From Arenicellales bacterium (lineage in GTDB: Bacteria > Pseudomonadota > Gammaproteobacteria > Arenicellales > JAJDZL01), in NCBI GenBank assembly GCA_965200765.1, contig OZ241380.1, positions 2,706,417 to 2,770,416 of the forward strand: 64,000 bases of DNA. Direction: 5' to 3'. Below, one piece after another: positions 11,101 to 63,582 of the stretch. Below the pieces are notes generated by a model that saw nothing but the letters and a program-made list of their open reading frames with translations, made no database searches and was not told where the DNA came from. The translations under genes and the position numbers were made by a program. Position 1 is the first letter of the stretch. Every line of letters begins with the position of its first letter.

Positions 11101-14100
11101 GACTGCTGAATTTGGAAAGCTTATTGATCGGATACGAGCCGCGGTACTCGGAGTTCTCAAGACTTTGTGTAATAAACTGTTATTGATTGCACTGCTCAGT
11201 GTCAGATGCGCAGCATTGCCGGTTGCTCTGCTGTGAACGTATCCGGTTAGTGAGCCCCCGTTTGAAGCAGTCAGTGCATTTGTCGCCACACTCAACCCGT
11301 TTGTGTCGTAGTCACCTGCCGCAACTGTGTATGTAAACGCATATACAGACCCATTGTTGCTACTGCTCCAGGAATCCGTGTAAACTGTTCCGCTTTCCAA
11401 ATTAATGGCCAGCCTTGCAACACGGCTAAAGGTAACGGGCTCACTGAATGTGACTTGCACCGTTATGATTTCACCTTCAACATATCCATAGGGACCTCTC
11501 CGTCCGTTCTGGTCGCAATAAGGATTCGTGGACCTGGGCAAGGTGGGGTGGTTGCACCTCGTAAGATTACGCGGAATACCCCTGATTATTGTGTTTGTAA
11601 TTTTCGGTATCCGACCATTAACTTTGTGCGATGAATGATTCGTGAAGCCATGACTCGCCAAAACTCCACTATGACCATGTGAGATGGCAAGATCTGCAGC
11701 AGTATTGTCATCTGTGCCACTAATTCTTCCACCGTTTAAACCCAGTGGATTCACCGTTCCTGCATAGTTGATGGTAATTCCGTCAGTATCATAATCGCGG
11801 TCTTGTACTGTGTAACTGAAGTTCAGGTAGTAACTGTGAGAATCTGTGAGGCCACGTGATTTCTGCTCGCGAGTGGTGCTCTTGTAAAAAGCATACCTTG
11901 TCAGGCTGCCAATGCCTATTGCCAGCGAAGGGCTTCCACTCACTGTCACGGGTCGGCTAATCTGTACGCGTACCTCAATCTTTTCTCCATTTTTGTATGT
12001 ATTGCCCCGCGCCGGCACAGAAGTAATTTCTATACCCTGTACAAACGGTACAGAAACTTGACCACCGTTAATCTTGTAAGTTTGAAGTAAAGTTGATGTA
12101 GTGAGAACTCCAGCCGTTGCATTCATACCACCGAAATTTCGGATATGTGCGCCGGAAGGTACTGTAAGTGCATTTTGCTTGGAGTAGAATCCATTTCCAT
12201 CGACATCCGATTGTTGTACGCGGTAGCGGAAGTAATGAATTCGTGGACTTACTCCTGCACCAACGTAAGTTGCCTGCCGTGTTGTACTCCCAATCAGCAT
12301 CCCGACACTGGGTGTTCCGGTCACACTTACTGCCTGGCTAAAGGTCAGTTTCAACTCGATTTCTTCACCCCGTTTATAGGTGTCACCTGTTGCAGGGCTG
12401 GAAACTACACTTATACCGGTTACCGACGGCGCATTTGAAACACTGCCATCTACCTTGTGGCCCGACTGGTTGCTCAACGTATGATGTCCAAGAACCAGCA
12501 ACGCGTTGTTGGCATTTTGATCGCGAATCAAACCACCATTCAAGGTCAATGCACCGCGTTCAATACTGATTCCGTTGGTGTCCCGGTCTTCCGAACGCAC
12601 CGTATATCGGAATTGCACATCGTTTCTGTCTGTAATGTAAAAAACGGCTTGACGGGTTCGGGTACCGACTTTCAATGCCAATTGCGGCGACCCTATCACT
12701 TTCATAACCGGAGTCAACGGAGAGGAAAAATTGACCCTCACTATAATCTCCTCTCCGACACCATAGGTATCCCCGCTTGTTGGAGTCGACAATAGTGTTA
12801 CACCGCTCACCAAGGGGCGATTGCCCGTCACACCCGTGGTAAAAGTCAATGTATCGGTATCGCCGTTGTAATCTGTTACTGTCAATGTGTGAGTTCTAAC
12901 GTGCGTTTCTAGAGTCGGCGTTCCTGTAATCGCCGCAGTACTGCCATTGAAAATCAACCCTTGGGGGAGTGATGGTGAAACGGTGTATATGAGCGGTGCA
13001 TCACCGACGGGGGATGTAGGCAATGTGGTAGATACCTCAGTACCAACTGTAAGTCTCAAATCAGGTCCTGTTGCACTGCTGAATTCTGGCCAGGCCCCGG
13101 TTTTACTGCCATCTACTTTTGCAGTTCCCAAATTGGTCAAGATATGGCTGCCTAAAGTCAGAACTGCATCTTCACCCTCGGCATCCCGAATCGAGCCTCC
13201 ATTCAGCGACAGTGCATTCGCGGCAATGCTGATCCCGTTTGAATCCGTGTCGTTCGCTTGAACTGTATAATCAAAGTACAAAACCCGGCCTGCTGTCTCT
13301 CCAAGATCTGTAGCAATTTGCGCTGACATCGGGTTGTAATTGGCCTGGCGCGTGTTGTCGCCAACTGCGATTGCGAGTTGGGGCGTACCAGAAACAGTAA
13401 TCGCCTGGTCAAATTCAACCTTTGCTCTGATCGACCCGGTTCGAGTGTAGGTATTGGCCTGCACAGGCGTGGAAGAGATTCCCACAGCAGACACTTTCGG
13501 CGGCGCAGATACCTTGTGACCGGCCTGGTTTGCAAGAGCCAGGTTGCCCAAACTCAGTGCCGCATTTACATTGCCATTCCTCAGGGTCACACCAGAAGGC
13601 AAGGACAGTGCATTTGCAGCAATACTGATACCGTTATTGTCGTAATCAGAATTCTGTACTGTATAGGAAAAATGAAATTGGGTATTGCCTGTTGGTCCAG
13701 AGCTAGCAGAACTGACTCCACTGACTACACGTGAATTATTGCCAATGGTGAGCGCCAGCTGAGGGGTACCGCTCCCACTTAGTGTCAAACCATCCATACC
13801 GGACGTGAATCTAATGAGAGCTCTTATTGTTTCGCCAGCCTTGTAGGTGTCTCCGGAAGCCGGACTGGAGGAAATACTTACAGTGCGCACCACCGGAATA
13901 ATGTCAGCACTACCGTTTACCTTGTGATTTGGGTCGTTGGTGATGGCAAATCTTCCGATATCCAGCGATGCTGCAACATTGCTGTTATTGAAATCAACAA
14001 TACTGCCCCCGTTCAAAGTCAGTGCGCCGGGGAGGATGCTAAGGCCGTCAGTGTCGAGATCAGATGCTTGCACGGAGTATTTGAAAATATGATTGGTACT

Positions 14101-17100
14101 CACTCCCTTGCATCTGAATGGTGTTGAACCAATGCTGAAATGGCTGTAATTCGCCTGTCGAGTGCGATTGCCGATTGTCAGTGCCAGTTGCGGCGTGCCT
14201 GTAATTGTTACACTTCGATTGAACTTGATTGCAACAACAATCGGATGCTCCGAATTGACTGCATAGAAGTTGTTGGTGCCCGGCTGAGGAGTGGAGCAAA
14301 TCTCCAAAAACGATATTACCGGAGCATTGGTAGCTGCTACCGTGAGCCCGAAAGTCAACTCCGCTGAATCACCATCTGCATCTGTAGCAGTGTAAGTATA
14401 ACTTCGCCGGGCGGCGACTGCTGTGGGCGTGCCCAGGATTCTGCGACTTCGCGCATCAAAGCGTAGTCCGCCAGTCAGTGCAGGAGAAATACTATAGGTG
14501 ATTGCCCCGTCTCCTGTTGCCGTTGGCAATAAAACGGACACTGCGGTGTCAGCAGTGTAGTGCTGGTCACTGATTCGCGCCGATCCAAAACTCACGGGGT
14601 TATCTCGTACCACGTGAGATGCAGAGTTGCTGATTGCGTGGCTGCCCAGTCCCAGAACTGCATCTTCATTTTCACCATCCCGAATGGTTCCACCGTTCAG
14701 ACTGAGTGCATTTGAGGCGATGCCAATGCCGTTTCCATCAAAGTCGGACGACTGTACCGTATAACTGAAGCTCAATTTTTTACCGCTCAGTCCGGTATAG
14801 CTCGCCTGACGCGTATTGCTCCCGACCGTCAGTCCCAGTTGCGGACTTCCGGATACTGATACATCCTGGTCGAACAAAATGTCCACAGTAATTGCATTGC
14901 CCGCAATATAGCCTGCTGTGCCAGACGGAGCCGATGACGTAATCCTCGCACCACTCACCAGCGGCGGAGCAGACACCTTGTGGTTTGCCGCATTGGCAAT
15001 AGCCTGTATACCCAAACCTGCATTGTTTGCCCCGGTCAGGTCCTGAATACTGCCACCGTTCAGTTGCAACGCATCAGCAGCAATACTGATACCATCCGTA
15101 TCTTTATCGCTTGTCTGCACCGTATATCCGAATTCAACAACACTTCCATCATCTCCTACAGCTAATGCTTGTCTCGTATTGCTTCCAATGGCAAGCCCCA
15201 ATTGCGGATTGCCTGTCACTCTGACTGCCTCGCTGAAATCGACCTGCACTTTGATTTTTTCACCCGCTCGGTAAGTGTCGCCACTACGCGGACTGGAAGT
15301 AATAGATACTTGTTTGACAGTGGGTGCCTGGTCAACTTTGCCATCCACTTTGTGACTTGAGGCATTTGTAATGGCATGGCTGCCAAGACCAAGGTTTACT
15401 GTTGCATTGCCAACTTGGGCCACCAAGACCAGACTTGAGTCCTTGCCAAGGGCTTCCGCCACAATACTGATTCCATCCGAATCCAGATCATTCGAAGTTA
15501 CTGTGTATCGAAACAGGTGCCTGCCTGCGGTATTTTGATAGGTGGCATTACGATTACTGCTCCCGATACCAAGAGCCAAATTCATACTGCCAGTACCGCC
15601 GATTTTAATCGGTTTGTGAAACATTACCTCGACAGTGATTGTTTCACCCACACCATAGGTGTCGCTACTCTGCGGGGTACTGATAATCGCAACGTCCGAC
15701 ACAGACACAGGAGGATTTACACCTCCATCCACCTTGTGACCCGATTGATTGCCGAGTGCATGGCTACCAAGATCGAGATTCGCATTAATGCCGTTTGTGC
15801 CCCTTATCGTTGAGCTATTCAGTACTAGCGCATTGGTTGCGATAGCAATGCCGTCGCTATCCCGGTCGGTTGCCTGCACGATGTACTGAAACGTCAGTTT
15901 GCGTCCATCACTTGACAGTTTCTTGAATTTTGCCCCGCGCTTTTCTGTACCGATAACCAACCCCAGCTGAGGCAATCCTGTGACTGACAGCGCCTGATTA
16001 AATGTAAGGTCCACCGTAATCAGCTCGCCGACACCGTAGGTGCTGTTGCTGTACGGCGTACTGGTGATAACGGCATCGCTGACTGTAGGCGCCGCCACGA
16101 TTTCCAGACTAAGGTCAAGTGTGGCCTGATCGCCATCCGCATCGGTGGCGGTCAGCGTATAAGTGGACTTTTGCACTGCGACCTGAGAATTGCCTGCGAT
16201 GGTACCGCCATGTGCAGCATCAGCGGCAGGTGCTGTATAACTGATTCCACTCGGCAAGGTTAAGGTCGCAACGGCCCCCGGTCCGGTCAGAGAATAACCA
16301 AGTGTACCGTCTCCACCGGTTGCAGCAGGTAAATTGAAACTGAATGATTTACCCGTAGCGTAGCGAAGTTCAGGTGCTGAAGAATTTGTAAACGACGGAC
16401 TGAGGTCGCCATTCACTTTGTGGCTCGCATCATTGACAACGGCGTGGCTACCGAGATTCAATTGAGCATTGATTCCGTCGGCATCTTGTATGGTACCACC
16501 GTTCAAAGTGAGTGCAGTCGCGGCGATACTGATGCCATCATTGTCCAGGTCTGCCGAAACTATCCTGTAACTGAAATTCAATCCTTTATTGCCATTGGAC
16601 CGACGGGTGTAGCTTGCCTGCCGCGTTTGTCCCCCGATTGCAAGTGCCAGTTGTGGCGTGCCGGTTATTGTCAAAACCTCGTCGTAGACAACACTTACTA
16701 TGACGTTTTCGTTTGGTCCGTAGGTATCGCCGCTTGCCGGTGCAGAAACAAACGTTACCAGTTGCGGTACAGTGATTCCTCCAGCAACCTTGTGGCTGGC
16801 ATCATTGTTGACTGCATAGCTGTCCAAGTCCAGATTTGCAGCGACAGCTCCGGTACCGCTCCCCTGAATTGTGGCACCATTCAGGGTCAAGGCAGACTTT
16901 GCAATGCTGATACCGTTGTCATCACGGTCTGTGTTCACTACGGTGTAGCTGAAGTTCAGCGTATTGCCGTTGCTCAGACTGCTGTAAGCCGCTTGACGGG
17001 TGGCTGACCCTATGTCAAGCGCCAATCTTGGCGAGCCGGTAACCGAGAGGTTCGAATTGAATTTTACGGCTACATTAACACTTTCACCGGCACCGTATGT

Positions 17101-19155
17101 GTTATCAGAGTTCGGAGTCGAAGTGAAGCTGACTTCGGTTACTTCTGGCACTGGCTGGTATATCGCCACGGTAAAATCGACGGAATCGAAATCACCGTCC
17201 CAGTCGGTTGCAATGAGCCGGTAACTGGTTGGATCCGGTGACACTGAATCCGGCATACCAGTGATCACTGCGGTAGAACTATTGAGAGTCAATCCCGAAG
17301 GAAGCGATGGCGAAACCGAGTACGCCAGCGGCGCATTGCCTCCCGTAGCTGTGGGCAGGCTGACGTTAGCCGCACTACCGGTGTCCAGAACCAAAGCGGT
17401 GGTCGTTGCTTCGCCAAAATCGGGTGCTATATCAGTTTCTGCACTCACCGCAAACGACAACTCGGCCTTGTCGCCATCACGGTCCGTTGCAACAAGCTTG
17501 TAATTGGTAGAGCTTGTTACGCTGGTGGGTGAGCCGGTAATTGAGCCACCATTCGCCGTACTGGTCGGTGCAGTGTACATCAACCCGTCGGGCAGGGTCG
17601 ATGGAGACAGTGCGTAACCAACCGGAACATCGCCGCTAGTAGCCGCGGGCAACGTCAAGTTGACTTGCTGACCGACCAGATAACGCTGAGTACTCACCGC
17701 GCCCGCCTGAAAAGATGGCCACAAGTCGTTAACCCGAAGGGAATTTCTATTTGAAAAGGAATTCAGGACATGTGCATCAAGGTCCGTGATCGCCGGTATA
17801 TTTGTTCCGCCTATCAAGCTCCAAATGCCTCCTAGCCCACCATCTTCAAAAAAGAAGCGAAATGGATTCCGCGGTATTGATATTCCGTTACCATCCCAGT
17901 CAATCGACTGCACTGTGTATTCAAACTGCATCTCTCTAGGCATAGCATCTTCACTTGATGGACTCGCTGACATCCAACGCCATTGGTCACCTATTTTGAT
18001 TCTGAATCGAATTCCAGCTTCATTAATCCTGAGAGGTTGATTGAACGTAAGTAACAGATGAATTTTGTCTCCCGTTACAAAGTTTCCATTTCGGGGGGCG
18101 CTACCACTTTCGTTCGTAATGCTGATACTGGTAACCGTTGCAGCGGATGCCACTTCAATGGATACAGTCAAAGTAGTGCTGTCTCCATCAGTATCAGTGG
18201 CAGTCAAGGTATAGTTCGTTGCCCCTCTGTTATTGGTGGGAGTACCGGTTATCGTCCCACCATGTGCGTCGGTTGCACCAGGTGCTGTGTAAACCAATCC
18301 CCGGGGTAGCGAAGCCATTGCATAGGTGAGTGCGCCATCACCGCCAGTAGCCGAAGGAAGAGTAACTGTGTTGATGCTTCGATTCCGTGCGAAACGCATA
18401 GGCGATACTGATTTTGAAAAACGAGGCATAGAATCCGCAGTTGTCAATGGGGTAGCAGTTGTGGTCGCGAATACACCACTACCGGTAACATTGACTGCCC
18501 GCAATCGAAATGTATACATTTTGTTATTGACCAGATTGGAAAGGGTATGTCCGACCGTATTTGCCCCGCTATTTTCAATCTTCGTCCAAGCTGTGAAACT
18601 CCCCCTGGCACCCTGTCGATAGCTAAGTTCGTAATGTGTAATGGAAGTATTCTTTGGGTCGGTCCAACTCAGAGTTGCCCGACCATTACCAGGTGTTGCT
18701 GAAAATCCGGTCGGTGCTGAAGCTAGCGCCGGATTCACCGTGAGGTAGAAATTGACAACAGCACTGTCGCCGTCTGCATCCCGCACGATTAATGTATAAA
18801 TGGACTTGAATGCCATTTCGGTAGGAGTGCCAGAAATCATACCGCCGCTTTGTGAATCGGCAGGAGCGGTGTACCTCAATCCGTCCGGCAAAGTCAGCGC
18901 TACCGTCGTCAATCCCGGTCCCGACAATGTATATGTTAATGGACTATTTCCGCCAAAGGCCGCAGGCAGAGCAATCGCAGTTGAGAGCTGCATATTTTGT
19001 GTAGTAACGTAGGAAGGTGTCGAAATGTTCCCGAACGACGGTTCGGTGTCTTGACTATTTGAAGATTGCGTAAACGCAAGCTGAGGTACGCACAGCATCA
19101 ATACTGCAAGTAACATCGCCACATGCGACAATCTCCATGTCAGCACTCGACTCAT
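1..19155 (-). CDS. Giant secreted repeat adhesin-like protein. The 5' end is complete and the 3' end runs off the left edge of the window (at least 6385 codons here).
   Basis: Minus-strand ATG at 19155-19153 is preceded by AGGA (aggaattgggATG). Hand translation starts MSRVLTWRLSHVAMLLAVLMLCVPQLAFTQSS. Codon phase is the same (19155 mod 3) at every point I spot-checked by translation: 18720, 15360, 13275, 8505 and 570. The ORF track omits it because there is no stop in the window. Translated content is He_PIG-like putative Ig domains (LP.ATGG..P.TY.L...LP.GL......ISGTPT...YT..ATD.DGD), one FN3, a ~125-aa module array, then Calx-beta units. Confidence 0.85.
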   Translation of the reverse strand, partial: MSRVLTWRLSHVAMLLAVLMLCVPQLAFTQSSNSQDTEPSFGNISTPSYVTTQNMQLSTAIALPAAFGGNSPLTYTLSGPGLTTVALTLPDGLRYTAPADSQSGGMISGTPTEMAFKSIYTLIVRDADGDSAVVNFYLTVNPALASAPTGFSATPGNGRATLSWTDPKNTSITHYELSYRQGARGSFTAWTKIENSGANTVGHTLSNLVNNKMYTFRLRAVNVTGSGVFATTTATPLTTADSMPRFSKSVSPMRFARNRSINTVTLPSATGGDGALTYAMASLPRGLVYTAPGATDAHGGTITGTPTNNRGATNYTLTATDTDGDSTTLTVSIEVASAATVTSISITNESGSAPRNGNFVTGDKIHLLLTFNQPLRINEAGIRFRIKIGDQWRWMSASPSSEDAMPREMQFEYTVQSIDWDGNGISIPRNPFRFFFEDGGLGGIWSLIGGTNIPAITDLDAHVLNSFSNRNSLRVNDLWPSFQAGAVSTQRYLVGQQVNLTLPAATSGDVPVGYALSPSTLPDGLMYTAPTSTANGGSITGSPTSVTSSTNYKLVATDRDGDKAELSFAVSAETDIAPDFGEATTTALVLDTGSAANVSLPTATGGNAPLAYSVSPSLPSGLTLNSSTAVITGMPDSVSPDPTSYRLIATDWDGDFDSVDFTVAIYQPVPEVTEVSFTSTPNSDNTYGAGESVNVAVKFNSNLSVTGSPRLALDIGSATRQAAYSSLSNGNTLNFSYTVVNTDRDDNGISIAKSALTLNGATIQGSGTGAVAANLDLDSYAVNNDASHKVAGGITVPQLVTFVSAPASGDTYGPNENVIVSVVYDEVLTITGTPQLALAIGGQTRQASYTRRSNGNKGLNFSYRIVSADLDNDGISIAATALTLNGGTIQDADGINAQLNLGSHAVVNDASHKVNGDLSPSFTNSSAPELRYATGKSFSFNLPAATGGDGTLGYSLTGPGAVATLTLPSGISYTAPAADAAHGGTIAGNSQVAVQKSTYTLTATDADGDQATLDLSLEIVAAPTVSDAVITSTPYSNSTYGVGELITVDLTFNQALSVTGLPQLGLVIGTEKRGAKFKKLSSDGRKLTFQYIVQATDRDSDGIAIATNALVLNSSTIRGTNGINANLDLGSHALGNQSGHKVDGGVNPPVSVSDVAIISTPQSSDTYGVGETITVEVMFHKPIKIGGTGSMNLALGIGSSNRNATYQNTAGRHLFRYTVTSNDLDSDGISIVAEALGKDSSLVLVAQVGNATVNLGLGSHAITNASSHKVDGKVDQAPTVKQVSITSSPRSGDTYRAGEKIKVQVDFSEAVRVTGNPQLGLAIGSNTRQALAVGDDGSVVEFGYTVQTSDKDTDGISIAADALQLNGGSIQDLTGANNAGLGIQAIANAANHKVSAPPLVSGARITSSAPSGTAGYIAGNAITVDILFDQDVSVSGSPQLGLTVGSNTRQASYTGLSGKKLSFSYTVQSSDFDGNGIGIASNALSLNGGTIRDGENEDAVLGLGSHAISNSASHVVRDNPVSFGSARISDQHYTADTAVSVLLPTATGDGAITYSISPALTGGLRFDARSRRILGTPTAVAARRSYTYTATDADGDSAELTFGLTVAATNAPVISFLEICSTPQPGTNNFYAVNSEHPIVVAIKFNRSVTITGTPQLALTIGNRTRQANYSHFSIGSTPFRCKGVSTNHIFKYSVQASDLDTDGLSILPGALTLNGGSIVDFNNSNVAASLDIGRFAITNDPNHKVNGSADIIPVVRTVSISSSPASGDTYKAGETIRALIRFTSGMDGLTLSGSGTPQLALTIGNNSRVVSGVSSASSGPTGNTQFHFSYTVQNSDYDNNGISIAANALSLPSGVTLRNGNVNAALSLGNLALANQAGHKVSAPPKVSAVGISSTPVQANTYTRTGSIRAKVEFDQAITVSGTPQLAIAVGDNTRQANYNPMSAQIATDLGETAGRVLYFDYTVQANDTDSNGISIAANALSLNGGSIRDAEGEDAVLTLGSHILTNLGTAKVDGSKTGAWPEFSSATGPDLRLTVGTEVSTTLPTSPVGDAPLIYTVSPSLPQGLIFNGSTAAITGTPTLETHVRTHTLTVTDYNGDTDTLTFTTGVTGNRPLVSGVTLLSTPTSGDTYGVGEEIIVRVNFSSPLTPVMKVIGSPQLALKVGTRTRQAVFYITDRNDVQFRYTVRSEDRDTNGISIERGALTLNGGLIRDQNANNALLVLGHHTLSNQSGHKVDGSVSNAPSVTGISVVSSPATGDTYKRGEEIELKLTFSQAVSVTGTPSVGMLIGSTTRQATYVGAGVSPRIHYFRYRVQQSDVDGNGFYSKQNALTVPSGAHIRNFGGMNATAGVLTTSTLLQTYKINGGQVSVPFVQGIEITSVPARGNTYKNGEKIEVRVQISRPVTVSGSPSLAIGIGSLTRYAFYKSTTREQKSRGLTDSHSYYLNFSYTVQDRDYDTDGITINYAGTVNPLGLNGGRISGTDDNTAADLAISHGHSGVLASHGFTNHSSHKVNGRIPKITNTIIRGIPRNLTRCNHPTLPRSTNPYCDQNGRRGPYGYVEGEIITVQVTFSEPVTFSRVARLAINLESGTVYTDSWSSSNNGSVYAFTYTVAAGDYDTNGLSVATNALTASNGGSLTGYVHSRATGNAAHLTLSSAINNSLLHKVLRTPSTAARIRSISFPNSAVTYLPFANSTYDAGEYIYPLVIFDKPVSVTGNPQLSISIGNQTRKATYVPSSIKTWLRFQYLVQPSDRDDNGVSIPANAVSLNGGSITTTSNSLAANLSSTRVADDSRRKVNGALNGAPKVNYVQMLFNPAVGNTYGLGEEVYVRVGFHKQISVSGSPQLQLALASGSVQASHHATRGDNIVFKYRVQTGDRALNGLSIRSNALSLNGGTIRSRSGVDANLALGSNAMSNNGDHRIDGRVKYVPTFGSAVISAKNYTKFVNVSDTLPAAEGGRGNLSYALTGPGTATNLTLPAGLSFNRLTRVISGTPRADAPQQTYKLTVTDGHRRTESLDFLLAVVDLTPTFGDSTIANQSWTQREQITSFSLPTVTGGDGTITYTLSPNLPSGVVYNETTHEVSGTPSVALPSTSYTWTATDADGDKAELTFSIEVDGIPTFGSGTIDDRSWDQLSEITSFTLPTVTGGNGTITYALNPALPAGVIRDQTTHTVSGTPSVSMDSTSYTWVATDADGDKAELSFAIVVTEAPYLSISSPSVTEGNDGNEALDFTVTLNKSSSHIITVAYTDSGTGTATSGTDYTGTDGGTLTFAAGETSKSISLEVIGDIDVESHETVVLKLGEATRAHIATGTGTGTILNDDGTPMISINSPSVAEGDTGTKSMQFTVSLSAVSSQQVSVSYADAGTGTATSGEDYSEISGGVLTFGANASSKTFNVEIIGDETEESHETVVVALSNASNATIQTATGTGTIRNDDGIPILSINSPSIAEGDSGTKTLSFTVTMDSASDQEVSVEYGLVDGGTATLGTDYTASSTGTLTIRVGDTTGTIDVTVRGDTLDEANETIRIQLAEPANAMLETGKSTGTGTITDDDDAPTISISSPSVSEGESDAKLIFEVVLSVASGRQVTVSYEDAGTGTAISGTDYTAVTSGKLTFTAGETNKLLNVSVLADTVDEPDESVDLKISSPSNATLGTSTGTGTITDDDDAPTVTLSLADSSISENGGTTAVKATLSHASSEATTITVTAVAGAYTVDEDATITIVAGDTSNSEDTVAITAVDNTKDETDRTATVTATAQNTQGIGTVTGASLTLADDDNAPTVTLTLADSSISENGGTTTVSAILSHASSAATTVTVTAVSGFYTVGDDATITIAAGATSNSADTVAIATVDNTKDESDRTATVTGTAQNTQGIGTVTGATLTLEDDDDAPTVTLSLADSSISENGGTTTVTATLSHASSAATTITVTAVSGFYTAGDDATITIAAGDTSNSTDTAAIAAVDNTKDESDRTATVTATAQNTQGIGTVTGATLTLEDDDDAPTVTLTLADSSISENGGTTTVSATLSHASSVATTITVTAVSGFYTVGDDATITIAAGETTNSSDTATINSVDNTKDAADRTATVTATAQNTQGIGAVTGASLTLEDDDAAPTVTLTLADNSISENGGTTTVTATLSHASSAATTITVTAVSGAYTVGDDATITIAAGETSNSTDTAAINAVDNTKDEADRTATVTATAQNTQGIGAVTGASLTLEDDDDAPTVTLTLADSSISENGGSTTVSATLSHASSATTTITVTAVSGAYTAGTDKTITFAAGETSNSSDTATINAVDNTKDEADRTATVTATAQNTQGIGTVTGATLTLEDDDDAPTVTLALVDSSISENGGTTTVSATLSHASSAATTITVTAVSGAYTAGTDKTITIAAGETSNNSDTATINAVDNTKDEANRSATVTATAQNTQGIGAVTGASLTLEDDDDAPTVTLTLADNSISENGGSTTVTATLSHASSAATTITVTAVAGAYTVGDDATITIAAGETSNNSDTATINAVDNTKDESDRTATVTATAQNSQGIGAVTGASLTLEDNDDAPTVTLALVDSSISENGGTTTVTATLSHASSATTTITVTAVSGAYTVGADKTISIAAGETSNSADTVAITAVDNTKDEANRSATVTATAQNSQGIGAVTGASLTLEDDDDAPTVTLSLADNSISENGGSTTVTATLSHASSAATTITVTAVAGAYTVGDDATITIAAGETSNSTDTAAIAAVDNTKDESDRTATVTATAQNTQGIGTVTGASLTLEDDDDAPTVTLSLADSSISENSGTTTVSATLSHASSADTTITVTAVAGAYTVGGDATITIAAGETSNNSDTATINAVDNTKDESDRVATVTATAQNSQGIGSVTGPSLTLEDDDAAPTVSISSPSVAEGDSSTARLRFVVSLSAASGRTVTVNYAEDAGGTATSGTDYTALSSGSLTFNAGDTSKNIDVSVAGDTLDEDDETVKVALSSPGNATLGTATGTGTITDDDDAPTVTLTLADNSISENGGTTTVSATLSHASSESTTITLTAVSGAYTVGSDKTISIAAGSTSNSSDTATINAVDNTRDEANRSVTVTATAQNSQGIGAVTGASLTLEDDDDAPTVTLTLADNSISENGGTTTVTATLSHASNESTTITVTAVSVAYTVGADKTILIAAGSTTNSGDTATINAVDNAKDEPNRSATVTATAQNSQGIGAVTGASLTLEDNDAAPTVTLTLADSSISENGGTTTVSATLSHASSESTTIMVTAVAGAYTVGADKTITIAAGSTTNSGDTATINAVDNAKDEPNRSATVTATAQNTQGIGTVTGASLTLEDDDAAPTVSISSPSVAEGDSSTARLRFVVSLSAASGRTVTVNYAEGAGGTAASGTDYTALSSGTLTFNAGDTSKNIDVSVTGDTLDEDDETVKVALSSPGNATLGTSTGTGTITDDDGTPTVTLMLADSSISENGGTTTVSATLSHASSAATTITLTAVSGAYTVGADKTILIAAGSTSNNSDTATINAVNNTRDEPNRTATVTGTAQNTQGIGAVTGASLTLQDDDDAPTVTLTVADSSISENGGTTTVSATLSHASSAATTITVTAVSGAYTVGADKTITIAAGETSNNSDTATINAVDNTRDEASRSVTVTATAQNTQGIGAVTGASLTLQDDDDAPTVTLTLADSSISESGGTTTVSATLSHASSAATTITLTAVSGFYTVGSDKTITIAAGETSNNSDTATINAVDNTRDEASRSVTVTATAQNTQGIGAVTGASLTLQDSDDAPTVTLTLADSSISENGGTTTVSATLSHASSAATTITLTAVSGFYTVGSDKTITIAAGETSNSSDTATINAVDNTRDEANRRATVTATAQNTQGIGAVTGASLTLEDDDNAPTVTLTLADNSISENGGTTTVSATLSHTSSAATTITLTAVSGAYTVGADKTILIAAGSTSNNSDTATINAVNNTRDEPNRTATVTGTAQNTQGIGAVTGASLTLEDDDDAPTVTLTVVDSSISENGGTTTVSATLSHASSAATTITVTAVSGAYTVGADKTITIAAGETSNNSDTATINAVDNTRDEASRSVTVTATAQNTQGIGAVTGASLTLQDDDDAPTVTLTLADSSISESGGTTTVSATLSHASSAATTITLTAVSGFYTVGSDKTITIAAGETSNNSDTATINAVDNTRDEASRSVTVTATAQNTQGIGAVTGASLTLQDNDDAPTVTLTLADSSISENGGTTTVSATLSHASSASTTITVTAVSGAYTVGTDKTITIAAGETSNNSDTATINAVDNTRDEASRSVTVTATAQNTQGIGAVTGASLTLEDDDNAPTVTLTLADNSISENGGTTTVSATLSHASSAATTITLTAISGAYTVGADKTILIAAGSTSNNSDTATINAVNN
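8190..9540 (-). repeat. Four divergent canonical Calx-beta domains
   Basis: Minus-strand translation gives units of the form SISSPSV.EG.SG.K...F.V.LS..S...V.V.Y....GTA..G.DY....G.LTF.AGETSK...V.V..D...E..E.V.V.L......A.....TGTGTI.DDD. The codon phase of TGTGTITDDDDAP was checked at 8505-8540. Confidence 0.7.
10060..17170 (-). repeat. Array of about 18 divergent copies of a ~125-aa (~375-bp) module, interrupted by He_PIG-like domains at about 14340-14600 and 16090-16400
   Basis: Hand translation of 15360-14980 gives SSHKVDGKVDQAPTVKQVSITSSPRSGDTYRAGEKIKVQVDFSEAVRVTGNPQLGLAIGSNTRQALAVGDDGSVVEFGYTVQTSDKDTDGISIAADALQLNGGSIQDLTGANNAGLGIQA. The same pattern recurs (ITS.P..GDTY..GE.I.V.V.F...V.VTG.PQL.L.IGS.TR.A.Y....L.F.YTVQ..D.D.DGISI...L.LNGG.I.D...A.L...HKV). 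The HKV-coding caccttgtg/cactttgtg motif is seen at about 12450, 13510, 13920, 14975, 15345, 15735, 16415 and 16790. Confidence 0.7.
18448..18720 (-). other. Fibronectin type III domain within the giant protein
   Basis: Translation reads SAPTGFSATPGNGRATLSWTDPKNTSITHYELSYRQGARGSFTAWTKIENSGANTVGHTLSNLVNNKMYTFRLRAVNVTGSG. This is the classic FN3 pattern (LSW, Y.L.YR, Y.FRLRAVN..G.G). Confidence 0.75.
19066..19155 (-). other. Sec-type signal peptide of the giant protein (about aa 1-30)
   Basis: The N-terminus is basic (R3, R8), followed by the hydrophobic core VAMLLAVLMLCV, then PQLAFT/QS. The cleavage position is a guess. Confidence 0.6.
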
Positions 19156-58036: not shown

Positions 58037-59395
58037 ATGCACAATAATCGTTCAAACAGCACAAAATACCTTGCACATGGGGTCAAGCCGCATGTTGCTT
58101 CGGCACTTGGTCACAGTCACGGAAACACTGCGGAAAATGAAGATTTCAGCATGTATGAACATCTTCCGAGACAATCACTTGTCTCATTTGTCTTCAGGTT
58201 CCTTGTTTGTCTCAGCGTAGTTTCAGTATTGGTGTTCTACCCGTATACAACTGCTGAAACAGACCGGTATTCCAAGAACGTCTGGGGAGTCAAGGCACAA
58301 CACCTTGCGGATTCCATTACTCCAAAAGTTCGTAGCAACGAATTTCCCCAGAATGTCGGACTGCAAGTCGGCGAGGCAGAGTACGAAGCGATAGTCAATT
58401 ACACCATGCAACCCGAGCTGACCGATTATGTGGATGGATTGCTAACTCGATACAAGCCGGACTATGCGGCCGTCGTAGCAATGAAGCCTGAAACCGGGGA
58501 CATCCTCTTGATGACCAGCTTTGTACGAAATCAGGACGAATATCAAAATCTTGCACTGCATTCGGAGTTTCCGGCCGCTTCAATATTCAAGATCATCACC
58601 GCTGTTGCGGCAATTGACCAAGGTATCGCAACCCCGAAGACACTGTACAAGTACAACGGCAAAAAAACATCTCTGTACAAGAAGAATGTGCTCCGACACA
58701 AAGATAACAAGTGGACACAGACGGTAGACCTGCGTCAAGCGTTCGCGTCATCAATCAACACTGTCTTTGGAAAAATGGGCGTATTTCAGGTTGGCGGATC
58801 AACTTTGAATGACTATGCCAACCAGTTCGGGTTTAATCGGCCGTTGAGCTACGATTTACAATTTGCGCCCAGTAAAACCAATTTCGAACATAACAACGAC
58901 TGGGCAGTTGCTGAAACCGCTTCGGGGTATACAAAATCTACGACGATGAGTCCGCTACATGCGGCATTGGTTGCTTCAGCGATCGTCAACAATGGCATCA
59001 TGCCTGAACCCCGAATTGTAAAGAACGCGTTCTTGTCTCATGGCCCCCTTCTGTATAACAGGAAAAACAGTTCTACAAGAGTTGTCAGCAATGAGGTTGC
59101 CAATGATATGAAAGTCTTGATGCGCGCAACTGTTCGCAAAGGTTCAGCGAGAAAATCATTCAAGGGGTTTTTCCGCGGCAACTACAAGTCCTTGGATGTT
59201 GGTGGAAAAACCGGCTCATTGACAGGGCTGAATCCCAAAGGCAGAACGGAATGGTTCGTCGGATACGGTGATTCGGGCTCGGAAAAGATTGCTGTCGCAA
59301 CAGTCATAGTCAACAAGAAAAAGTGGCGTGTCAAGCCAGCGTATTTGGCGCGCAAAGTGATTGAAGAGTATTTCAAGCCAAATGCGAGTGGGTAA
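58037..59395 (+). CDS. Penicillin-binding protein, transpeptidase domain (class B-like, short)
   Basis: SxxK (AASIFKI), SxN (SSINT) and KTG (GKTGS) are present in the correct order, with an N-terminal TM anchor FVFRFLVCLSVVSVLVF. The start is uncertain (58007 TTG, 58037 ATG, or the MYEHL ATG). Confidence 0.8.
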   Translation: MHNNRSNSTKYLAHGVKPHVASALGHSHGNTAENEDFSMYEHLPRQSLVSFVFRFLVCLSVVSVLVFYPYTTAETDRYSKNVWGVKAQHLADSITPKVRSNEFPQNVGLQVGEAEYEAIVNYTMQPELTDYVDGLLTRYKPDYAAVVAMKPETGDILLMTSFVRNQDEYQNLALHSEFPAASIFKIITAVAAIDQGIATPKTLYKYNGKKTSLYKKNVLRHKDNKWTQTVDLRQAFASSINTVFGKMGVFQVGGSTLNDYANQFGFNRPLSYDLQFAPSKTNFEHNNDWAVAETASGYTKSTTMSPLHAALVASAIVNNGIMPEPRIVKNAFLSHGPLLYNRKNSSTRVVSNEVANDMKVLMRATVRKGSARKSFKGFFRGNYKSLDVGGKTGSLTGLNPKGRTEWFVGYGDSGSEKIAVATVIVNKKKWRVKPAYLARKVIEEYFKPNASG

Positions 59396-60078
59396 GCAAG
59401 TCTCTACCGCTATTGTCGGTTCAGGCATGAAGGCGTAATTGTTCCGGAAGTTCCATCCTGAACCAAGCCGCATGTGTTTCACCACGTGCACAAGAAATCT
59501 CTGCAACCATAGATTTCACCGACTGTGTGGGGAATGTTCCTTTGTGACAACAGGACCCATGATTTCTCTAGACTCAGAGGATGCTGTTCCTTTTCATGTC
59601 TGTGACATCGCTGATGCATGGTCACCCGCCTTGCTCAGGACCGAAAAGCACTTATTGCCGGTAATCTGCACCTACACCAAAATTTTTGCTACTTTAGTAT
59701 CTTATTGGTATACGAACAAGCGGCACAGGTTCCCCCTTTATATTGACTGACTCACTTCACTCCGGGGTCATGCCCACAGAAGTACGGCTGGCATTCTAGC
59801 CAAGCGATGTATTTCATCAACCCCTCCCATAGCTGATGATGCTACCTTGTTATCAGCGAACTGTTGGAACTCACCTACTCGCATTTGGCTAACAATTACT
59901 GTTCTCCATACTACAGCAGGACCTACACACAGACGGATGAGACAGATACATCACCGTCTTTTGTTGTATACAGCTCTTGAAAAACAGAGATCTTCGTCAT
60001 AATACGACAATTTCAGTCATACAAAATTTTCAGCTCTTGATTTTTAAAAAATTCTCAAGTATAAATTTGCACACTATT

Positions 60079-61476
60079 ATGACTTTTCTATACGAATTAT
60101 TTTCGAATACAGCAAGCAACATTCAAATGAAAGACCACTCAAAAATTATTTCAGACGCGAATTACGAGGGTGAGAACTTCACTAAAAACTGGCCCTGGGC
60201 GGCAGTGAATTTAATGAGTCAACATAAATCTCTAGTGCCCTTTCTACATATTGCCAACAATCCGGATACCATTGTACCTACTGTATCAAAAATGCTCTGT
60301 TGCTCTGGTTTGGAAGATTGCAAGAAAGCACAATACTTTGCCAAAGAGATGCCGCGTTACGCGGAATGTAGTGTTATTTCCAAATTGCTAGGCAAGGCGG
60401 ACAACAAAAAAGACATGCTACATAGGGCAATTTTGCTTGACGTAAATTATGACGAAAAAGGTGAACTGTTTCAAAGAATCGCAAATGCGCCTCGTTATGC
60501 CAAGGAACAGCTTGTATATGCTACGAATAATGCAAATTATTTGCAATCTGGTTCAATTGATCATTTATTAGGCAAGTTAATGGTTGCCGTTCTGGCTGGT
60601 ACGGATATTGATCCTCGTGATGTTCCCAATTTCAGAGTCTTTTATAGAGCATTGGAAGTTGTCTCACTTACTTGCTTCGCGTTGAATTATCAAGCACAAT
60701 GCGAGACGTTTACACCAAGTTACAATCACGAGTTTTATGCAGGTACACTTTCCATACTGAAAATGCTCTATACAAACAAGCCTGTTCCGACACCATATCA
60801 ACTTGCACGATTTGCGAAGCATGTTGATGACAATGTCTTTTCATACAGGAACTATCGAAGATATCGCGATCGTGGTGGGAATGTGTGTGGCAACGGAGTA
60901 ATACAAATGGATATAAAGAATCTCACTTGGCCTGCACCACCTGGTTGGGATAGTGAAATGGGTTTGCAAGGACAAATTGTGCCTTTGTTGAGTACAAAGT
61001 GCATATTGCAGGAAGGCAAGGAGAATAAGAACTGTCTGGAAACGGACATGGACTACATTATAGAAGCTGCTAGTGGCGATATTGCACTGTTCTCACTTCG
61101 CTTCAATAAGGCTCGTGCGACACTTATGCTGAATATGCATAAAAAGTCAAAAAAACAATTGAAGTTTGATATTGGAGAACTGAAAGGGCCGGGCAATGCA
61201 AAACCCACTTCCAAAATCAAGAATGCTTCTGATAATCTAGTAGCACAGTTAAATCGTCGTCAATCACTGTCTTTGCCAAAAGACAATTATCCATTGCAAA
61301 TTGATCATTTGAACAGTTTGATCATTCCGAAAGGAACTTCCCATGATTTGTGGAATTTATTTTCAGGTGTACTTCCAAACAGATTCCAATCGTACAGCAA
61401 ACTGGTATCCTACTATACAGATGCTTTGCGCACTATAAGGAATGACTACGACCAGACTATATGCGAATTGCTATGA
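60079..61476 (+). CDS. Hypothetical protein, paralog 1 of an uncharacterised pair
   Basis: Long AT-rich ORF. It shares blocks with 61970..63406: NWP.AA, MLCCSG..DC.KA, LLDVNYD..G.LFQRIAN.P.Y, PPGW, IVPLL, GD.AL..LRF and LQSYSKL.S.Y..AL. The start could be 60079 or 60127 (MKDH); the track's TTG at 59977 is unlikely. Confidence 0.65.
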   Translation: MTFLYELFSNTASNIQMKDHSKIISDANYEGENFTKNWPWAAVNLMSQHKSLVPFLHIANNPDTIVPTVSKMLCCSGLEDCKKAQYFAKEMPRYAECSVISKLLGKADNKKDMLHRAILLDVNYDEKGELFQRIANAPRYAKEQLVYATNNANYLQSGSIDHLLGKLMVAVLAGTDIDPRDVPNFRVFYRALEVVSLTCFALNYQAQCETFTPSYNHEFYAGTLSILKMLYTNKPVPTPYQLARFAKHVDDNVFSYRNYRRYRDRGGNVCGNGVIQMDIKNLTWPAPPGWDSEMGLQGQIVPLLSTKCILQEGKENKNCLETDMDYIIEAASGDIALFSLRFNKARATLMLNMHKKSKKQLKFDIGELKGPGNAKPTSKIKNASDNLVAQLNRRQSLSLPKDNYPLQIDHLNSLIIPKGTSHDLWNLFSGVLPNRFQSYSKLVSYYTDALRTIRNDYDQTICELL

Positions 61477-61835
61477 TGACGATTGATACTATCGCCATGG
61501 TATATACGATATTTGCGATTGCGGTGGCGTATGGCCTATTCTTGCTACATGATCAGGACGTAAACCACCGCGGCCTGAGTGGCGTCGATGCCATGCTCCG
61601 TTTGATGCACTTGCATAATACCCTCTCAGGAAAGCCAGTCAAGGATTGTTATCTGACGCTCTACATCAATGGTCGTCATTATCGTGCCACAGCAGTCCTC
61701 ACCGAAGATGACTGGTACTGCGTGTATTGCGTATTCGAGCGCGGCGCGGTCGTGGTATTCACCGAGACACGCGCCGAGATAGTCGAAGCGCTGACAGACG
61801 CATACCGGGGACTGGAGAAAGAGAGTACCGAATAG
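61473..61835 (+). CDS. Small hypothetical protein with an N-terminal TM helix, ATGA-coupled to paralog 1
   Basis: The ATG at 61473 overlaps the upstream TGA (61474-61476). TM segment is IAMVYTIFAIAVAYGLFLL. The gene is visibly GC-richer than the flanking paralogs. Confidence 0.5.
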   Translation: MMTIDTIAMVYTIFAIAVAYGLFLLHDQDVNHRGLSGVDAMLRLMHLHNTLSGKPVKDCYLTLYINGRHYRATAVLTEDDWYCVYCVFERGAVVVFTETRAEIVEALTDAYRGLEKESTE

Positions 61836-61837
61836 AC

Positions 61838-61954
61838 ATGCCGTACGGATTAATCTACCGTGTAGCATCCAAGCACTATATCAACGACCGGCGATTGCTC
61901 AATGAAATTGTAGAATTCTGCTCGTATCAGAACGATGCCACTATCCCCGAATAA
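61838..61954 (+). CDS. Possible 38-aa micro-ORF (MPYGLIYRVASKHYINDRRLLNEIVEFCSYQNDATIPE)
   Basis: The ATG lies 2 nt after the preceding stop and the ORF fills the gap before paralog 2. No other support. Confidence 0.25.
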   Translation: MPYGLIYRVASKHYINDRRLLNEIVEFCSYQNDATIPE

Positions 61955-61969
61955 ATCGCCGAGTCTATC

Positions 61970-63406
61970 ATGGATTTAAACGTAAAAATGAAGATTATTC
62001 TAGAAAAATCATCGTGCTCGACGTTGGAGTACGAGTATATCAGAAAAAACTGGCCGGAGGCCGCAATGCAACTTCAAAATCAATTGAAAATGGAAAATTA
62101 CCTGAAAGAACCTGAATTTATTTTTTCGACCGTGTCAAGTATGCTCTGTTGCTCAGGAAAAAAGGACTGCGAAAAAGCAAATCGTCTTACTGTTGAAATA
62201 CAACAATTCGCTAACAACAAGAATGTATTCAAGTTGTTGGATCAACTGTGCAAGAAACAAAATACGCGAATGCGAGCTGTACTGCTAGATGTTAACTATG
62301 ATCAAAATGGTGCATTGTTTCAAAGAATCGCAAATTCACCTGAATATGTAGTAAAGCAACTTAAATATGCCCTTGATGTCGGAGAGCATAGTCGATCCGG
62401 TACGGTTGACTTTTTACTTAGCAAACTGATTGTCAAATTGATTTGCGGTTCTGAAGTTCGTCCTAAAAACATGCCACATAAAGATTTAATCAGTCGCGCA
62501 CTGACGATTATGGCAAGAATGTGTTTCAGTGCAAATGTTAATCTTCAATGTAGACCATATGAATCCAGTTTCAATAAAGACATTTCAAAATCTCAAATAG
62601 ATTATAAAGGTGATCATTCATCATTAAACCTTTTTGATTCAAGTGATGAACTTGTAACTATGCCTAGCGTAATAGCAATTCTCAATTTGCTATATTTCGC
62701 TAACCCCGCTTTAACGCCAGAACAGTTTACGCGATTTGTTGAGAATGTTGTTGAAATCGGTCCGGTTAAGGTCGGAGGTGGAAGCGATATCTCAAATATT
62801 ACGACGATTGATTTGATGAACCAAAAGCTACCATCTCCACCAGGGTGGACTAAAGACTTGGAGTCAGACGGAAAAATAGTTCCTTTGCTAACCATGGACA
62901 GCATAAATCGAGAATGCAGAGAACATGATGTTGATTCCCCATACGAATACGGTGAAACTGCCAGACAAGCCGCTTGCGGTGACGTCGCACTATTAGCACT
63001 TCGTTTTGGAGAGCAACGCGGATTGTTGACCCTTGGTATGAATGGTGTCGTGATAAATGGCAAGAAAGCAACCAAATTTAAAGTATTGGATTTAGAGGAC
63101 AATGTTGAAAGTGTGGATATTGAGGAAATTGCAAATCAACTGGCAGAGCGATTAAACAAACGCCAAAGACCACTTGAACTTCAAGATTATCCTTTGACAG
63201 CCGAAAACAAATTTTCAGCTTTGCTTGTGCCAAAAGTTCACTCCGCGGAAGAATTGTGGGGTGAATATACAAAAGTTCTTCCAAAAGAGCTTCAATCGTA
63301 CAGCAAATTAATGTCGCACTATTCTGCCGCGTTGCACATGTTGCGCGATGAACTGGACTCGACCATTAGCAAGCAAGTCGAGTCGTTGAACTCCTGCCCG
63401 GTGTAG
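61970..63406 (+). CDS. Hypothetical protein, paralog 2 of the uncharacterised pair (478 aa)
   Basis: See paralog 1. By eye about one third of positions are shared across the full length. Confidence 0.7.
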   Translation: MDLNVKMKIILEKSSCSTLEYEYIRKNWPEAAMQLQNQLKMENYLKEPEFIFSTVSSMLCCSGKKDCEKANRLTVEIQQFANNKNVFKLLDQLCKKQNTRMRAVLLDVNYDQNGALFQRIANSPEYVVKQLKYALDVGEHSRSGTVDFLLSKLIVKLICGSEVRPKNMPHKDLISRALTIMARMCFSANVNLQCRPYESSFNKDISKSQIDYKGDHSSLNLFDSSDELVTMPSVIAILNLLYFANPALTPEQFTRFVENVVEIGPVKVGGGSDISNITTIDLMNQKLPSPPGWTKDLESDGKIVPLLTMDSINRECREHDVDSPYEYGETARQAACGDVALLALRFGEQRGLLTLGMNGVVINGKKATKFKVLDLEDNVESVDIEEIANQLAERLNKRQRPLELQDYPLTAENKFSALLVPKVHSAEELWGEYTKVLPKELQSYSKLMSHYSAALHMLRDELDSTISKQVESLNSCPV

Positions 63407-63582
63407 GTCAACCGCATTCAGGTTGTGTAGATATGCAGTCGAGGTTGCCCAATGCTTCGACTACACATGAGCATAATCAGACTGCGGGTTCAAATAGTAG
63501 CCACAGCCATAGTGCCTTTGGCTACTTGTTCCGTAAAAAACTGTATAATCAACTTCATTAATTTTCAAGCAAAGAAGTTGTA

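Follow-up and report, generated by a model that had tools for sequence, protein, structure and literature searches.

A divergent, tandemly duplicated PcfJ-like gene pair in a probably mobile chromosomal cassette of Arenicellales

Proteins of the PcfJ-like family (PF14284) are named after PcfJ of the Enterococcus faecalis plasmid pCF10 and are typical of the establishment blocks of conjugative plasmids and of phages. On plasmids, pcfJ is found within long runs of small genes of unknown function which all point in one direction, with SSB, topoisomerase, H-NS, an orphan N6-methylase, MobC and a coupling protein encoded nearby, neighbourhoods which we take to be of the establishment or leading-region type. 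Here a tandem pair of genes, called A and B, is described from Arenicellales, a marine gammaproteobacterial order which includes the sponge-associated Ca. Spongiicolonaceae and Ca. Poriferihabitaceae. The pair is located on contig OZ241380.1, of which a stretch of 64,000 nucleotides, referred to as the window, was analysed. Both encoded proteins are assigned, remotely but consistently, to a rare and highly divergent PcfJ-like subfamily, and the pair probably represents a horizontally acquired cassette of 3.3-3.9 kb which can change its chromosomal position.

With the PcfJ-like proteins of plasmids and phages the pair shares a homologous C-terminal stretch of about 150-180 residues, and the predicted fold of A matches that of phage members. 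Motifs common to A and plasmid PcfJ are W-P...(P)GW, I-x-P-L, E-G-x2-M-x-(H/N)-C, ALFS-(I/L)-R, R-A-T-L-x-L and L-x-G-x2-N, and a Sphingopyxis protein has in addition the terminal W...Y...LP-R in common with A. Unlike the plasmid members, A and B are chromosomal, lie in a gene-poor cassette with no conjugation or phage genes, and occur in tandem, with the core motif missing from the second copy. They are also shorter (about 450-470 amino acids as compared to 517-603 for most plasmid members), score below the Pfam threshold, and carry a helical N-terminal domain with a CC-x5-C...C cysteine signature which does not align to the plasmid proteins.

Long-form relatives of the same clade (P0011-P0068, mostly 600-700 amino acids, from marine or host-associated metagenomes) contain the cysteine-signature domain and the PcfJ-like domain in the same order as A, to which they are 22-30% identical. 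They differ from A and B by an extra N-terminal extension of about 230 amino acids, by being single-copy, and by residing in high-GC (guanine plus cytosine) genomes in varied neighbourhoods, often with IS110 elements. By analogy only, the pair also resembles enzyme/pseudoenzyme pairs, where one tandem paralog keeps a motif which the other loses while both are under purifying selection.

Relationship of A and B to PcfJ-like proteins

The two genes and the two domains of A are located as follows.

60127..61476, plus strand: paralog A, 449 amino acids from the conserved start, 465 from the ATG at 60079; PcfJ core motif intact
61988..63406, plus strand: paralog B, 472 amino acids from the widely conserved start, 478 from 61970; PcfJ core degenerate
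60163..60834, plus strand: N-terminal all-helical domain of A, residues 29-252 in the 465-residue numbering, from the secondary structure of the AlphaFold2 model
60886..61473, plus strand: C-terminal alpha/beta PcfJ-like domain of A, residues 270-465

Related loci are labelled L001-L009 and relatives of the proteins P0011-P0068; seven related loci were compared for the layout of A and B. The start of A which is conserved among orthologues is the ATG at 60127 (MKDHSK...), the ATG at 60079 being missing in L001 and L006. For B the start common to most loci is the ATG at 61988 (MKIILEK...); L005 does not have it and must use the equivalent of 61970. A preliminary description of this DNA had proposed that the two large open reading frames (ORFs) are homologous over their full length, which is borne out by BLASTP (34% identity, 54% positives, E 9e-87), and the shared blocks which it listed (NWP.AA, LCCSG..DC.KA, LLDVNYD, PPGW, IVPLL, LRF, QSYSKL) are seen in alignments of A and B. 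Its suggestion of an old tandem duplication retained to the present agrees with the paralogy of the two genes and with purifying selection on both copies.

A word-indexed search of 5.8e9 proteins gave six matches per paralog, all on Arenicellales-type contigs. Orthologues of A were 68-98% identical and those of B 72-97%, while the respective other paralog type showed 32-35% identity. The single genome match was the 3.15-Mb chromosome of an Arenicellales metagenome-assembled genome (OZ241916.1). A and B are neighbours in each of the six loci whose length allows this to be seen; L003, with 3.8 kb, stops 60 codons into B. When a hidden Markov model profile of 12 Arenicellales sequences was run against 1.84e9 cluster representatives, 60 proteins were found, 39 of them at E<=1e-10. 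Most of the distant relatives are collinear with A and B, and they occur in unrelated high-GC bacteria and in one TARA ocean sample. As the distant relatives are single-copy, the A/B duplication appears to be specific to this Arenicellales lineage. Comparison of the A/B alignment with JGI metagenome contigs yielded no relative.

The preliminary description had recognised no family in either large protein. This holds in so far as scans of the window proteins against Pfam, NCBIfam, PADLOC and PDB sequences gave nothing above threshold, but it is superseded by the remote link to PcfJ, which emerged once profile searches had collected the roughly 60 relatives. Thirty-three of 63 family members match PF14284 (E<=0.1), always in the same C-terminal region and with a best E of 3.2e-6; several relatives reach 23-24 bits, within 1-2 bits of the Pfam gathering score of 25 bits. 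A profile of the 63 sequences was then compared by hhalign with three plasmid PcfJ-domain proteins. It aligned to a protein of the Yersinia frederiksenii plasmid CP009363.1, which itself scores 37.4 bits on PF14284 and thus above the cut-off, with 95.6% probability (E 1.3e-8), to a protein of Sphingopyxis granuli pRW412a with 96.2% (E 2.2e-9, 156 columns), and to one of Vibrio maritimus NZ_CP090440.1 with 95.4% (E 1.7e-8), the latter two being PcfJ by annotation. These alignments cover residues 282-436 of A, and the one with the Sphingopyxis protein spans from the W-P...GW motif to the terminal W..Y..LP.R. In tblastn searches relative P0014 matched the Yersinia plasmid pcfJ-like gene (E 2e-4), and A gave three weak matches in plasmids, all three annotated as PcfJ-domain proteins. 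These four lines of evidence and a fifth, the predicted structure, link the family to PcfJ independently of one another. PHROGs gave nothing useful for the 63 family members, and a profile search of PDB with one of the family alignments (A3) gave chance matches only.

With the 63-sequence alignment AlphaFold2 yielded a model of A with a predicted local distance difference test score (pLDDT) of 84.7 and a predicted template modelling score of 0.81, as compared to a pLDDT of 42.8 with 12 close sequences. The model consists of a helical N-terminal domain (29-252) and an alpha/beta C-terminal domain (270-465) with the element order beta-alpha-alpha-beta-beta-beta-alpha. The outcome of the structure search, which had been suggested as a check, was divided. 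With Foldseek against BFVD five of the ten top matches were named PcfJ-like, from phages (E 1.3e-3 to 8.3e-2), and the two best matches were uncharacterised proteins (best E 1.6e-5, probability 1.0); the global template modelling scores were low (0.17-0.22), as expected for multi-domain proteins. Against PDB there was no significant match (best E about 1). The order of elements in the C-terminal domain is like that of GNAT acetyltransferases, but with a probability of 0.3-0.6 and E >= 1.8 this is a weak lead and membership is not claimed. The N-terminal domain of A carries the CC-x5-C signature (C74, C75, C81) and a fourth cysteine, C199. These cysteines are conserved to about 98% in the outgroup columns of the relatives and are invariant in a further alignment (A4).

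Another finding was a marked asymmetry of the two copies. All 57 outgroup relatives match A better than B, at roughly double the bit score, and among 80 outgroup-conserved columns 49 are retained in A and 36 in B. The conserved core of the family, E-G-x4-N-C-L ... ALFS-R ... R-A-T-L ... G-x2-N, is kept by A with E312, G313, N318-C319-L320, F338, R346-A-T-L349, G370 and N373. The core motif E-G-x2-M-x-(H/N)-C ... F-S-(I/L)-R ... R-A-T-L ... G-x2-N, which is present in A, is lost in B, where in A numbering G313 is replaced by C, C319 by D, L320 by S and F338 by L; further losses are A347 to G, T348 to L, G370 to D, N373 to E and W284 to L, and P376 is deleted. The CC-x5-C...C signature is intact in both proteins, and the N-terminal domain of B carries an insertion of about 25 amino acids. 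B is the fast-diverging, degenerate copy, with A as the canonical one. The ratio of nonsynonymous to synonymous substitution rates (omega) was 0.26-0.35 for A, 0.25-0.51 for B and 0.02-0.12 for the adjacent penicillin-binding protein (PBP) gene, so that both copies are under purifying but relaxed selection and evolve 3-10 times faster than this housekeeping neighbour.

Purifying selection on both copies, the four to five conserved cysteines and the chromosomal setting between housekeeping genes would also suit a cellular regulator or sensor which has been domesticated and has lost its link to mobile elements, such as one that senses redox state or a metal via the cysteine signature. One relative directly downstream of an extracytoplasmic function (ECF) sigma factor gene and a putative anti-sigma gene, and single members fused to STAS or DnaA_N, fit with this as well. 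No DNA-binding or signalling domain is present in the pair, though, and omega is well above that of the neighbouring housekeeping genes by the margin just given. The family is patchy and rare (about 60 clusters in 1.84e9 representatives), the chromosomal location varies and the composition is foreign, so that we regard such a sensor as quite unlikely.

Inspection of the gene neighbourhoods of homologues, proposed in the preliminary description, revealed no secretion-system or prophage genes at the Arenicellales loci and no conserved neighbour gene among the distant relatives, whose surroundings vary. Some single relatives stand out. P0057 (921 amino acids) is fused to a DnaA N-terminal domain (PF11638, E 2.3e-9), one further member of alignment A3 is fused to a STAS domain (E about 4e-7), and P0017 directly follows an ECF sigma factor gene and a 248-amino-acid gene, a putative anti-sigma factor; each of these is a singleton, and they possibly hint at protein-protein or regulatory roles. 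In L008 a caspase-like (Peptidase_C14/PPC) lipoprotein gene has, in its N-terminus as called (5638-5750), a stretch of 37 amino acids which is 67% identical to residues 163-199 of the neighbouring P0017. A shared N-terminal adaptor module was considered and rejected; most plausibly a piece of the family gene was duplicated and now precedes the actual start of the lipoprotein, an instance of rearrangement among family genes at this locus. At L009 (518-2399) P0043 is split into two overlapping frames on a contig of 2x coverage, owing either to a frameshift or pseudogene or to a fault of the assembly.

These data also bear on the idea that A and B are horizontally acquired effectors of sponge-associated Arenicellales, delivered to or acting on a host in symbiosis. 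They are AT-rich, fast-evolving, lineage-restricted orphan genes in an order which includes sponge-symbiont families, and several related cassette-bearing strains occur in one metagenome (ERZ25070167). On the other hand hydropathy shows no signal peptide or transmembrane segment in A or B (Kyte-Doolittle maxima 1.14 and 1.47), the vicinity lacks secretion-system genes, eukaryote-like domains are absent, and the occurrence of relatives in unrelated high-GC bacteria and a TARA ocean sample does not fit. A role as symbiosis effectors is thus held to be very unlikely.

The cassette and its two chromosomal sites

Two further features are needed to describe the unit in which A and B occur.

59555..63440, plus strand: whole cassette, consisting of leader, A, variable spacer and B; the interval common to both sites by blastn
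59555..60126, plus strand: conserved non-coding leader, aligned across five cassette copies

The cassette was found at two chromosomal sites. At the first, occupied in the window, L002, L003, L005 and L007, it lies between the PBP gene and lutA, as had been noted for the window; the upstream flank is a PBP transpeptidase gene (PF00905) and the downstream flank in syntenic loci is the CCG-domain gene lutA with lutB. At the second site, occupied in L001/L004 and L006, it lies between adh_short and CDP-OH_P_transf/psd amid valS, holC, pepA and ilv genes. In blastn comparisons between the sites exactly window positions 59555-63440 are common, at 83-88% identity (L001 7991-11303, L006 9446-12924). 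This interval comprises a leader of about 520 bp, A, the spacer, B and about 35 bp beyond. The atypical composition stated in the preliminary description was likewise found, with a GC content of 41.6% in the AT-rich cassette and 49.5% in the remainder of the window. The Arenicellales copies are chromosomal and flanked by housekeeping genes; the cassette has no mobility genes, yet it occurs at two sites and is of foreign composition. An accessory, horizontally mobile module, as had been expected from the layout, is consistent with the two sites in related genomes and with a family that is otherwise one of plasmids and phages.

The leader is conserved on par with the genes (88% mean column identity over five copies) and contains a promoter-like TTGATT-17 nt-TATAAA at 60037-60065, which is kept in all five. 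It had no match in Rfam, its predicted folding is not unusual (z -1.1), and no remnant of the N-terminal extension of the relatives was found in it. There is no conserved coding frame either: the sole ORF with a preserved frame shows only about 50% protein identity at about 83% DNA identity, as would fit a non-coding region.

At the cassette ends no convincing terminal inverted repeats or target duplications were found. A weak repeat is present at the second site, where the hexamer CAACAG occurs at both ends (L001 about 7985 and about 11320, and the equivalent in L006), within CAACAGGA on the left and GCAACAGAA on the right; at the window site it occurs at the left end only. The hexamer may have arisen by chance or may represent a target or attachment repeat. 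Around the first site a 21-nt inverted repeat was noticed (59376-59396 and 59870-59890, 19 of 21 positions complementary, arms 473 nt apart), one arm of which is formed by the last codons and the stop of the PBP gene and the other of which is inside the cassette leader. Among the other loci searched both arms (<=4 mismatches) are found in L005 and L007 only, and the repeat is possibly a rearrangement scar. Between the window and L002 the synonymous divergence is 0.62 for A, 0.37 for B and 0.32 for the adjacent PBP gene; the cassette may have had a history different from that of its flanks, by recombination or replacement, or the values may be inflated by AT-rich codon usage.

The surroundings of the cassette vary among strains. 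L005, a 97.9%-identical relative, carries an IS21-type element (rve transposase, IstB helper and small ORFs) at 5852-9541, corresponding to window positions of about 59437-59445, between the PBP gene and the cassette. This insertion marks the region between the PBP gene and the cassette as an insertion hotspot. In L006 two extra genes, including SDH_protease, lie immediately downstream of the cassette.

At this point it has to be weighed whether the two genes defend the cell against phages or plasmids as a system placed in a chromosomal hotspot of variable content. This would be in line with a mobile cassette at sites made variable by the IS21-type element in L005 and SDH_protease in L006, with the fast evolution of A and B, and with the neighbours of some distant relatives, which include STAND-like AAA_16/TPR, DUF499, a caspase-like protein, AAA_15/DUF3226, a DNA methylase and IS110 elements. 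But no PADLOC model matched: with PADLOC-DB v2 the sole match of A, MTase_II, is at chance level (E 0.011, 14.3 bits), and there was none for B or for the small ORF between them. Moreover, the distant relatives have no conserved neighbour, and the Arenicellales flanks are housekeeping genes instead of defence islands. It is the invading elements, plasmids and phages, in which PcfJ-like homologues are found, and this would if anything suggest counter-defence or establishment. Defence proper is therefore considered an unlikely function of the pair.

The small membrane protein and the spacer between A and B

Between A and B the window contains the following features.

61473..61835, plus strand: small ORF, 120 amino acids, one transmembrane helix, ATGA-coupled to A, lineage-specific
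61496..61985, no strand assigned: variable A-B spacer (indel segment), with three states among the compared loci

Several properties of the small ORF had been described correctly: its ATG overlaps the stop of A (ATGA, 61473-61476), it has a single N-terminal transmembrane helix (hydrophobic segment at residues 7-25 with a Kyte-Doolittle maximum of 2.33; A and B have none), and it is richer in GC than its neighbours (51.8% as compared to 40.3% for A, 40.0% for B and 49% for the whole window). At third codon positions the difference is larger, 61% versus 37-38%. With an omega of 0.21-0.47 where it is present, it looks like a real gene in those strains. A micro-ORF of 38 amino acids which had been thought possible at 61839-61955 is frame-shifted in L007 and is therefore probably not a gene.

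The layout of the spacer differs among the loci. The window, L005 and L007 contain the complete segment and with it the small ORF. L001 lacks 61496-61985, and L006 lacks 61515-61932 with 25 unrelated bp in place, so that the missing segment which carries the small ORF comprises about 420-490 bp. L002 and L003 have an unrelated AT-rich spacer of about 110-140 bp. In these four of the seven loci the small ORF is absent and A and B are adjacent. In L006 an ORF of 38 codons (11352-11470), in which the first 42 nt of the small ORF and the last approximately 37 nt before 61970 are retained, bridges A and B with an ATGA overlap at both ends; this is possibly a translational coupling of A to B, or a coincidence.

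Scans of the small ORF against Pfam, NCBIfam and PADLOC found no family. Among 15 billion sequences 12 near-identical ones in two 90% clusters were recovered, with an identical copy on a 3.29-Mb contig. Viral and JGI metagenome contigs contained no real relative; apparent ones in viral contigs were due to a chance 8-mer match in a 450-amino-acid phage ORF beside a large-terminase-like ORF. As the small ORF is missing in four of seven loci it is not a core component of the pair, and its third-position composition indicates a separate origin. It is a later, compositionally foreign insertion into the A-B spacer of one sublineage. The arrangement of a small membrane protein between two large ones, which had been put forward as the architecture of a module, is thus a feature of this sublineage, with the small partner conserved beside the large gene in three of seven loci only.

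This distribution also contradicts a three-gene effector/immunity or toxin/antitoxin-like module, in which a large toxic effector would be accompanied by an ATGA-coupled membrane immunity protein or anchor. The coupling to A, the single transmembrane helix, some purifying selection on the small ORF, the atypical composition of the cassette, and the bridging ORF of L006, which again overlaps both genes by ATGA, are what such a module would show. A and B, however, are intact and selected where the small ORF is absent; the latter is of separate origin as judged from its codon composition, has no homologues outside the sublineage, and no toxin or immunity family was matched. Such a module is accordingly rated as highly improbable.

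Outside the cassette, the window contains a giant ORF on the minus strand (1-19155) of at least 6,385 amino acids, which begins close to 19155, has an N-terminus resembling a signal peptide and continues beyond the left end of the window. Its 3' part is made up of 24.7 tandem copies of a 330-bp (110-amino-acid) unit at 1-8179 with 81% matches. It probably encodes a giant repetitive surface or adhesin-like protein.

Proposed role of the pair and significance

The explanation which we favour, with moderate confidence, is that of a horizontally acquired, translocatable cassette with a divergent PcfJ-like tandem pair. A PcfJ-type gene would have been captured from a mobile element and then duplicated in tandem in one lineage, with asymmetric divergence of the copies. 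A would be the active subunit, and B a degenerate, non-catalytic partner which may be regulatory or determine specificity in a hetero-oligomer with A. The conserved cysteines could bind a metal, either zinc or an iron-sulphur cluster. The activity would be the one which PcfJ exerts for mobile elements entering a cell, possibly DNA-related in the sense of nucleic-acid handling, or counter-defence; these are favoured because PcfJ is associated with plasmid establishment regions and with phages. The cassette would then be a stranded or domesticated remnant of a mobile-element function.

A number of points weigh against this explanation. The match of A itself to PF14284 (14.7 bits, E 0.027, residues 299-374 on profile positions 67-136) is below the gathering score, and B has no match to this profile at all. 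In hhalign comparisons with the plasmid PcfJ proteins the N-terminal domain gave no alignment and no counterpart was detected, so that it appears to be clade-specific. At the Arenicellales loci no integrase, transposase, plasmid or phage gene was found in the cassette, and instead of a translocation two ancestral duplicate loci followed by differential loss may account for the two sites. As the distant relatives are single-copy, a hetero-oligomer is not a requirement of the family. The A-B complex, the metal binding and any activity are purely inferred, and neither a solved PcfJ structure in PDB nor a functional study of PcfJ in the literature searched was found.

A more far-reaching version would see A and B as a self-contained two-subunit system, a motif-intact PcfJ enzyme with a degenerate partner, each with a metal-binding helical domain of four cysteines, performing a previously undescribed activity in the conflict between mobile elements and their hosts, such as counter-defence or nucleic-acid modification. 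We consider this rather unlikely. If it is true, the isolated cassette with its own promoter-like site would be the simplest handle on the role of the PcfJ domain.

Taken by itself, the assignment as a PcfJ-like cassette refines the annotation and is moderately interesting; it does not amount to a novel type of system. The locus adds to the family a strongly divergent clade, in which the helical domain with its cysteine signature is new. It also provides a natural minimal context, two genes and a leader, from which the other genes of mobile elements are absent. The pair of an intact and a degenerate copy marks the residues that matter, namely E-G...N-C-L, R-A-T-L and G-x2-N, and the two sites suggest that a small cassette has probably moved between positions of Arenicellales chromosomes without a recognisable mobility gene.

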